Sequence record: NC_052662.1
Reading direction: 5' to 3' (one strand)
DNA from: Escherichia phage Mt1B1_P17
DNA length: 64,000 bases
Shown here: positions 63,255 through 63,340 of the stretch, piece after piece
How the letters are laid out: each line of letters begins with the position of its first letter
How positions within the stretch are numbered: position 1 is the first letter of the stretch
Translations under genes and position numbers: made by a program
The notes under the pieces: model-generated
Databases searched by the model: none
The model's input: the letters and a program-made list of their open reading frames with translations, nothing else
What the model was told of the DNA's origin: nothing

Positions 63255-63340
63255 TGGCGATGAGTATAGGATTTGAACCTATATCGTTCTTTCGAACACG
63301 GATTAACAGTCCGCCGCTTAAACCATTCAGCCAACTCATC
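63255..63340 (-). tRNA. Type II (Ser-like, long variable arm) tRNA with anticodon GTT
   Basis: 86 nt; Ser-like D-arm, anticodon stem GCGGA/TCCGT, loop CTGTTAA, 15-nt variable arm, discriminator G, CCA encoded. Confidence 0.6.

Follow-up and report, generated by a model that had tools for sequence, protein, structure and literature searches.

When a phage transfer RNA (tRNA) carries the asparagine anticodon GUU on a body with a long, serine-like variable arm, which amino acid does it deliver? The question is raised by a gene at 63255..63340 on the minus strand of a 64,000-nucleotide (nt) stretch of Escherichia phage Mt1B1_P17 (NC_052662.1), the whole of which is called the window below. A preliminary description had taken this gene for a serine tRNA one transition away from the anticodon GCT and thus for an extra copy beside two conventional serine tRNAs. 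The gene is a real phage tRNA gene decoding AAC/AAU, and it belongs to a widespread lineage, or to several, of long-armed tRNA-Asn that populate the tRNA clusters of phages and tRNA arrays in cellular genomes. Judged from its sequence and those of its relatives, it probably specifies an asparagine-accepting phage tRNA with a selected extra arm.

The locus poses a clean identity question, namely whether a long arm is acceptable to a class IIb synthetase. Asking which amino acid is attached is legitimate because the identity sets of asparagine and serine tRNAs both include the discriminator base G73. In Escherichia coli, asparagine identity consists of the three anticodon bases and G73, and serine identity of the long arm or tertiary shape, strengthened by the acceptor stem (PMC9976931).

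Asparagine-like and serine-like features

The gene is predicted by ARAGORN as an 86-nt tRNA-Asn (gtt) with the anticodon at position 34, in agreement with its annotation in identical phage records. RF00005, the Rfam tRNA model, matches 63258-63340 with 62.0 bits (E = 1.9e-12; gathering score 29), covering model positions 1-71 completely and leaving a 12-nt insertion in the variable region; with its cloverleaf above the curated gathering threshold, the gene belongs to that family. The minimum-free-energy fold is the same cloverleaf plus a variable hairpin, at -23.7 kcal/mol with a z-score of -1.7 that is not significant alone. The 5' part reads GATGAGT TG GCTGAATGGTTTAAGC G, then GCGGA-CTGTTAA-TCCGT, and the 3' part GTTC-GAAA-GAAC-GAT, ATAGG-TTCAAAT-CCTAT, ACTCATC, G, CCA.

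All parts of the molecule lie on the minus strand. The 5' strand of the acceptor stem, GAUGAGU (63334..63340), pairs with ACUCAUC at 63259-63265, giving G-C at 1-72 and A-U at 2-71 in the ARAGORN parse, in which the acceptor/T branch is the standard 7/5. The D-arm, GCU-GAAUGGUUUA-AGC (63316..63331), has a 3-bp stem that includes C11-G24 and a 10-nt loop, enlarged in class II style according to the parse and the alignment with relatives. The anticodon arm, GCGGA-CUGUUAA-UCCGU (63298..63314), holds GUU at 63305-63307. It is followed by the variable arm (63283..63297), a hairpin GUUC-GAAA-GAAC at 63286-63297 and then unpaired GAU at 63283-63285; the fold, the parse ((((vvvv))))sss and covariation among 29 relatives agree on it. 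The T-arm, AUAGG-UUCAAAU-CCUAU (63266..63282), fits both the Rfam match and the parse, and the molecule ends (63255..63258) in G73 at 63258 and an encoded CCA at 63255-63257. The preliminary description had this architecture right: the 86-nt cloverleaf with its 15-nt variable hairpin GTTC-GAAA-GAAC, G73, the loop CTGTTAA and the anticodon GTT are all reproduced by ARAGORN, Rfam and the fold. The D-arm that it called serine-like does resemble that of the phage tRNA-Ser(GCU) in its 3-bp stem and 10-nt loop, as does the total length. The identical 86-mer in many deposited genomes rules out a sequencing error at the anticodon.

The assignment as a serine tRNA is not supported. The anticodon arm is identical to that of E. 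coli asnT in 17/17 nt, plus G26, and asnT aligns to the whole window tRNA with a single 10-nt gap, located in the variable region. Compared with the tRNA-Ser(GCU) of the window, only 6/14 acceptor-stem, 10/17 anticodon-arm and 6/15 variable-arm bases are identical, and the anticodon stem differs at all five pairs; this segment-wise comparison rules out a recently mutated copy of tRNA-Ser(GCU). The A-U pair at 2-71 and the geometry of the arm are likewise unlike those of serine tRNAs.

A wider comparison sets 86 distinct long-armed tRNAs(GUU) against 72 serine tRNAs from the same loci, with arm geometry available in 62 and 61 of them, respectively; the counts are ARAGORN parses of pattern-selected, phylogenetically non-independent sequences, and p-values drawn from them are descriptive only. 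G73 occurs in 83/86 of the long-armed tRNA-Asn and in 45/72 of the serine tRNAs. The pair U1-A72, typical of bacterial tRNA-Asn, is found in 56/86 against 0/72, although the window tRNA has G1-C72 in its place, and C2-G71, a listed anti-determinant against E. coli seryl-tRNA synthetase (SerRS) (PMC9976931), in 41/86 against 0/72. G1-C72 and G2-C71, both absolutely conserved in E. coli tRNA-Ser (PMC9976931), stand together in just 17 of the 86 long-armed tRNA-Asn and in 65 of the 72 serine tRNAs. G2-C71 on its own is present in 69/72 of the latter and absent from 52/86 of the former, the window tRNA among them.

Arm geometry separates the two groups as well. A variable stem of 4 bp or less is seen in 55/62 long-armed tRNA-Asn and 16/61 serine tRNAs, and at least three unpaired 3' bases in 46/62 and 6/61; phage serine tRNAs have one or two such bases in 55/61 cases. 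With no unpaired 5' base, a 4-bp stem and three unpaired 3' bases, the window arm follows the asparagine pattern, which is closer to that of phage tRNA-Tyr than to that of tRNA-Ser. Measured against ordinary tRNA-Asn, the window tRNA thus has GUU and G73 and lacks the short 4-5 nt variable loop and U1-A72; measured against tRNA-Ser, it has the long arm and G73 and lacks G2-C71, a serine anticodon (NGA/GCU) and the serine arm geometry. In mistranslating class II tRNAs of the nematode nev-tRNA type, discriminator and body elements belong to the class II amino acid and not to that of the anticodon; in the window tRNA, G73 suits both asparagine and serine, and the 2-71 pair and arm geometry are unlike serine.

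An origin from the adjacent tRNA-Tyr, which shares 12/14 acceptor-stem bases and differs by one base in the anticodon, was considered and rejected; the likeness is absent in phAPEC8, Antha, S114 and CBH8. A nearest-neighbour test over 65 loci found no preferred isotype beside long-armed tRNA-Asn.

Long arms in these loci are not confined to asparagine. The same loci hold long-armed Thr(UGU), Cys(GCA), Trp(CCA), Ile(UAU/GAU), Lys(UUU), Glu(UUC), Gly and Asp tRNAs. Taking the short-armed tRNAs of the same isotype in the data set as reference, their discriminators match the anticodon isotype in 7/7 Cys (U73), 10/11 Ile (A73), 4/4 Glu (A), 2/2 Gly (U), 2/2 Lys (A), 4/5 Trp (G) and 2/2 Asp (G). These isotypes keep their own discriminator, and therefore the arm was added without a switch to serine, leucine or tyrosine identity. 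By parsimony the asparagine case would follow them, though G73 also fits serine. The same arm geometry, 3-4 bp with a GNRA loop and an unpaired 3' stretch of 3-4 bases, is seen again in long-armed Thr, Cys and Trp.

Long-armed Thr, Cys, Trp, Lys, Glu, Gly and Asp tRNAs were noted in two T5-like contigs and in nine other named loci and more besides, several with a 3-bp stem, a GNRA loop and 3-4 unpaired 3' bases, as in the asparagine form. A separate set comprises tRNA-Ile(UAU) in eight loci and CAU tRNAs in two, which measure 91-96 nt with variable regions of 21-25 nt and have in common a loop motif resembling CAGAT(T/A)A, which points to a conserved element of another kind, for instance a site for binding or modification.

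A paired arm in many phage tRNA clusters

The variable hairpin is kept paired by selection. Among 29 distinct relatives with a 15-nt variable region, the four proposed arm pairs are standard pairs in 88.8% of cells, compared with 47.7 +/- 3.7% in shuffled sets, none of which (0/500) gets as high; slid registers give 27-43%. All four pairs show changes on both sides, in 46 cells where 14.5 are expected. Helix variants include GUUC/GAAC, AUCC/GGAU, GAAC/GUUC, GAGC/GCUC and GAUC/GAUC, mostly closed by GNRA loops. The family shows a wide range of arm sequences and of arm lengths (11 to 19 nt). The window arm has the modal pattern ((((vvvv))))sss, which it shares with 15 other distinct sequences.

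Positions 62000-64000 show 99.8% identity with Escherichia phages WPEC4, WPEC2 and WPEC6; other phAPEC8-like myoviruses, about 150 kb in size and placed in the genus Phapecoctavirus, match this region at 99%. In blastn searches, the 86-mer is found at 99% identity or more in 36 records, and 292 phage records have a match, nearly all annotated as tRNA-Asn. Relatives occur in Justusliebigvirus and Mydovirus (~75% identity), in the T4-like Winklervirus CBH8 and Erwinia phages (~85%) and in T5-like phages, where an 83-nt version is present in 291 records. Searched by blastn against E. coli genomes, the tRNA gave only a chance match in yobD. Apart from the long form, no tRNA-Asn is present in the clusters of phAPEC8, S114 (T5-like, Epseptimavirus), SuperGirl, IrisVonRoten, Antha and the T4-like CBH8; in S114, the other amino acids are served by ordinary tRNAs.

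The IMG/VR database was scanned with a pattern made of the asparagine anticodon arm, a spacer of 16-28 nt and GGTTC, in the fixed form GGACTGTTAATCC...GGTTC. At least 120 matches, checked with ARAGORN, yielded about 90 long tRNAs(GUU) of 79-91 nt with very diverse acceptor stems. Among the matches listed, about 10 loci have a long tRNA-Asn beside a normal one of 72-75 nt. When the spacer range admitted both types, the long type made up 16/120 (13%) of the viral tRNA-Asn matches listed, and loci with at least four tRNAs held about 19 long and 45 short tRNA-Asn. The window tRNA fits the resulting phage group, defined here by GUU, G73, a 3-4 bp hairpin with a tetraloop, about 3-4 unpaired 3' bases and a location in a phage cluster.

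Cellular genomes give a different result. Among one genome each of 185,579 prokaryotic species, the long-spacer pattern has 68 matches, most of which are not tRNAs; about 17 are real long-armed tRNAs(GUU), and 11 of these lie inside arrays of 7-36 tRNAs, for example in Micromonospora. The long-armed form is rare in cells and mostly located in arrays, and is therefore typical of phage or mobile tRNA arrays rather than of core cellular sets. Four Micromonospora and Verrucosispora chromosomes have arrays of 23-36 tRNA genes within 8 kb that include a long-armed tRNA-Asn of 89-90 nt with a variable stem of 4-6 bp (6 bp in three of them); these look like integrated mobile or phage tRNA arrays.

Phage T5 itself differs from most of its relatives. 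Its own tRNA-Asn (minus strand 6953-7030 of contig L192; 33952-34029 in NC_005859) is short-armed and 78 nt long, with two mismatches in the anticodon stem and the loop UUGUUAA. Most T5 relatives have, at the syntenic site between tRNA-Cys and tRNA-Asp, the long-armed form with a near-canonical stem. The mutated short form of T5 and the long arm of its relatives could be two solutions under the same pressure. Two further observations concern T5: a CUA-anticodon version of its tRNA-Asn is recorded as not being a suppressor, and a coding sequence described as a 'tRNA amidotransferase' (T5.081; L192 14618-15001) adjoins its tRNA region and may be relevant to T5-like handling of Asn or Gln tRNAs.

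Charging and possible roles of the arm

The anticodon arm, discriminator and family-wide features make charging with asparagine by the host asparaginyl-tRNA synthetase (AsnRS), not with serine, the most likely outcome. AsnRS would read the GUU anticodon and G73 and charge the tRNA, which would then decode AAC/AAU. The layout can be read as a tRNA-Asn with a 10-nt insertion that turned the 5-nt variable loop into a 4-bp hairpin with a GAAA tetraloop and three unpaired 3' bases, accompanied by an enlarged D-loop. With an anticodon arm identical to that of the host tRNA, the molecule would still be recognised by AsnRS and modification enzymes, and the added arm would alter how host tRNA-binding proteins see it. 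AAC and AAU together account for 5.9% of the codons in 51 long open reading frames of the window; with that codon share and a long-armed tRNA as the sole tRNA-Asn of the cluster, systematic insertion of serine would therefore be costly, altering a large share of the proteins.

The altered view by host proteins might serve, for example, in steric hindrance of defence nucleases such as AriB of the PARIS system, although we hold this role of the arm only tentatively. AriB cleaves E. coli tRNA-Asn(GUU), a secondary target, between positions 40 and 41 (40|41), and in a structural model one AriB monomer faces the cleavage site and the other faces U16-U17 of the D-loop (PMC12409363). T5 tRNAs rescue cells from PARIS toxicity (PMC12409363). 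Steric protection is conceivable because the arm emerges next to positions 40-43, near the 40|41 cut. The window tRNA is an isoacceptor of an AriB target; it has no substitutions around 40|41. The T5-like long-armed Thr(UGU), noted in passing, is 87 nt long, and Thr(UGU) is a main AriB target. The published rescue was considered as functional proof for the long arm and set aside, having been obtained with the short-armed tRNA-Asn of T5. A testable arms-race idea follows, in which the shape of a tRNA, not its sequence, is changed to escape tRNA-cleaving defences.

Several points weigh against an asparagine-accepting tRNA with a selected arm, in addition to the descriptive nature of the counts. 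Class IIb synthetases approach the tRNA from the variable-arm side, and a long arm could hinder AsnRS. G73, the best-conserved element, is common to asparagine and serine and so cannot tell the two apart. Some E. coli serine determinants (G1-C72, C11-G24, G73 and the long arm) are present in the window tRNA, and T5-like and T4-like members of the family also carry G2-C71. The covariation means that the helix is maintained once present, not that its insertion was of benefit. No aminoacylation, expression or proteomic data on the window tRNA or its long-armed relatives were found in the literature. As for a defence role, the cleavage context of AriB, U36-A-A-U-C|C41, is the same in the window tRNA as in E. 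coli asnT, and the long-armed family occurs in phages of many unrelated hosts. The tRNA-Asn of phage Bas34, be its arm long or short, is reported to be insufficient against PARIS, and the variable arm is never mentioned in the PARIS paper (PMC12409363).

The limit on what covariation proves is the starting point of an account that we consider unlikely, in which the molecule is a working tRNA-Asn and the arm has no function of its own. The arm would be a fixed insertion, such as a small tandem duplication, that spread with the clusters and is paired only since an unpaired insert would be harmful. Its highly variable sequence and length agree with this. So does a chromosomal tRNA-Asn of Azoarcus sp. 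L1K30 (L189 114-200), otherwise normal, in which an 11-nt tandem duplication, ATCCGTAGGTC, spans the 3' anticodon-stem strand and the variable loop and creates a pseudo-long variable region in the same place, a possible way for such insertions to begin. However, the form is very diverse, with unrelated acceptor stems and members in a U1-A72 as well as a G1-C72 group, and such diversity suggests that it has persisted for long or arisen more than once. Phage arrays often contain it and core cellular tRNA genes almost never do, and long-armed Thr, Cys and Trp show the same geometry. The loci with a normal short tRNA-Asn alongside argue for a distinct role.

Charging with serine, in whole or in part, with serine inserted at asparagine codons, appears improbable. 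The long arm and G73 would recruit SerRS, which ignores the anticodon and relies on the long arm or tertiary shape, G73 and the acceptor stem (PMC9976931, PMC7609411). The serine determinants of the window tRNA named above, its serine-like 3-bp D-stem and a 4-bp arm of the same length as in the phage tRNA-Ser(GCU) would suit that enzyme, and a precedent exists in nematode nev-tRNAs, where the class II body decides the charging (PMC3333845). Against this stand the A-U pair at 2-71, the many family members with U1-A72 or C2-G71 or without G2-C71, an arm geometry unlike serine and an anticodon arm identical to that of the host tRNA-Asn. The long form is also the only tRNA-Asn in clusters with near-complete phage tRNA sets, and long-armed Cys, Ile, Glu, Gly and Lys tRNAs keep non-serine discriminators. 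In a bolder version, to which we give marginally less credence still, the arm makes the tRNA a SerRS substrate beside or instead of AsnRS, and phages deliberately insert serine at some asparagine codons or use seryl-tRNA(GUU) non-translationally. If true, this would be a virus-encoded, widely conserved mistranslating tRNA in large lytic phages of several families.

It is very improbable that the tRNA is not primarily translational and instead distracts or competitively inhibits a host enzyme that targets tRNAs, or that it exists as the dedicated substrate of a phage enzyme. The authors of the PARIS study suggest that some overexpressed viral tRNAs may inhibit AriB by competition (PMC12409363), and a host-identical anticodon arm would serve well as a decoy. 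Long and short tRNA-Asn occur together in about 10 loci, and a tRNA-like RNA adjoins the gene. Yet the full cloverleaf, G73 and an encoded CCA are kept, the long form is the sole cluster tRNA-Asn in many phages, and no partner protein is evident nearby, the protein-coding neighbours of the locus being spanin and terminase genes. A pseudogene or prediction artefact can be dismissed almost entirely: some cluster tRNAs are atypical or annotated as pseudo, but here the Rfam score is 62 bits with all stems intact, the gene is identical in dozens of genomes and its relatives show compensatory changes.

The surrounding cluster and comparison with known systems

At the end of the window, ARAGORN predicts eight minus-strand tRNAs, and together with Rfam it places the tRNA-Asn gene in a cluster of at least 10. 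The tRNA-Tyr(GUA) gene (63347..63434, minus strand) lies 6 nt upstream; it is missed by ARAGORN and matched by RF00005 with 39 bits at 63350-63434. Its likeness is to the T5-like Tyr of S114 and not to the Tyr that phAPEC8 has at this position, and Tyr alleles seem to have been exchanged between phage families. Further upstream on the same strand are the two serine tRNAs that the preliminary description had reported nearby. tRNA-Ser(GCU) (63565..63650) is 86 nt long with a variable arm parsed as s((((vvvv))))ss. tRNA-Ser(UGA) (63655..63745), with an atypical D-arm and the anticodon loop CUUGAAA, is missed by ARAGORN and detected by Rfam only, as a tRNA-Sec-like match at 63659-63745 of 37.4 bits, below the gathering score. 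A promoter-like TTGACA-18-TAGATT with TG (63754..63783, minus strand) stands upstream of tRNA-Ser(UGA) in a consensus scan and may, on weak grounds, drive a Ser-Ser-Tyr-Asn-Thr transcript; such sites are no more numerous than in shuffled sequence.

Directly downstream of the tRNA-Asn gene, at 63172..63247 on the minus strand, folding predicts a tRNA-like RNA: its acceptor-like stem has 7 bp, a T-arm-like hairpin is present, and the middle is aberrant. This RNA is at least 95% conserved, without annotation, in 86 Phapecoctavirus records, and aligns in 56 identical columns with the T5 'rna3 putative tRNA-like RNA', which likewise directly follows the tRNA-Asn of T5. An ordinary short-armed tRNA-Thr(UGU) follows at 63090..63164 (minus strand; ARAGORN, and Rfam with 59.5 bits). 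Elsewhere in the cluster, a tRNA-Met(CAT) at 62209-62287 (minus strand) measures 79 nt and has a non-standard 1-72 pair and U73; its counterpart in phAPEC8 is called tRNA-Pseudo-CAT. Just downstream of the last tRNA, 62068-62138 on the minus strand has sub-threshold Rfam matches to RyhB (29 bits) and MicA (24 bits) that overlap a terminator-like hairpin at 62093..62075; this stretch is probably just the terminator of the tRNA operon.

Textbooks and reviews limit long arms to tRNA-Ser, -Leu, bacterial -Tyr and -Sec; a 2014 review assigns the long arm to Ser, Leu and bacterial Tyr only and names nev-tRNAs as the exception (PMC4033280). The gene studied here is already annotated as tRNA-Asn in hundreds of GenBank records. 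No description of a class II architecture of phage tRNA-Asn, or of a large group thereof, was found in the searchable literature, outside which the older T5/BF23 tRNA papers lie. Phages commonly carry a class II-shaped tRNA-Asn, and their loci also include Thr, Cys, Trp, Ile, Lys and Glu tRNAs that have a long arm and keep their own discriminators. For annotation, a long arm in a phage tRNA should not count as evidence of serine identity.

Among known systems, E. coli asnT shares with the window tRNA the GUU anticodon, G73, the 17-nt anticodon arm with G26 and an alignment broken by one gap, and with the wider long-armed family the frequent U1-A72 and C2-G71 pairs. It differs in its 5-nt variable loop, where the window tRNA has a 15-nt variable region with a hairpin, in a D-arm of 4 bp and 8 nt instead of 3 bp and 10 nt, and in an unrelated acceptor stem (0/14 bases identical to that of the window tRNA, which has G1-C72). 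Serine tRNAs share the long arm, G73, G1-C72, C11-G24 and the 3-bp D-stem, and the phage tRNA-Ser(GCU) has the same length of 86 nt. Unlike them, the window tRNA has an asparagine anticodon within a different anticodon arm, A-U at 2-71, and a 4-bp variable stem flanked by 0 and 3 unpaired bases; in E. coli serU a 6-bp stem is flanked by one unpaired base on either side, and phage serine tRNAs mostly have 5-8 bp with one or two unpaired 3' bases. Bacterial-type tRNA-Tyr is similar in the arm, with a variable stem of 3-4 bp and 2-3 unpaired 3' bases, and its anticodon GUA resembles GUU; the adjacent tRNA-Tyr also has most acceptor-stem bases in common with the asparagine gene. However, tRNA-Tyr has A73 and the window tRNA has G73.

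Nematode nev-tRNAs, which bear Gly or Ile anticodons and are charged with Leu, likewise join a class II body to a class I-type anticodon (PMC3333845, PMC4033280); in the phage case, by contrast, the discriminator agrees with the anticodon isotype, the codons are common, and the phage clusters hold no other tRNA for that amino acid. Allo-tRNAs and tRNA-Sec are also non-standard, long-armed tRNAs with non-serine anticodons from bacteria and phages (PMC5389517, PMC7609411), but they have acceptor/T branches of 8/4, 9/3 or 13 bp and serine (or alanine) identity, whereas the branch here is 7/5. The T5 tRNAs for Lys, Thr and Asn that act against AriB are, like the window tRNA, phage isoacceptors of host tRNAs cleaved in defence (PMC12409363). 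They escape through substitutions around 40|41, whereas the window tRNA only adds an arm, from which resistance might follow.

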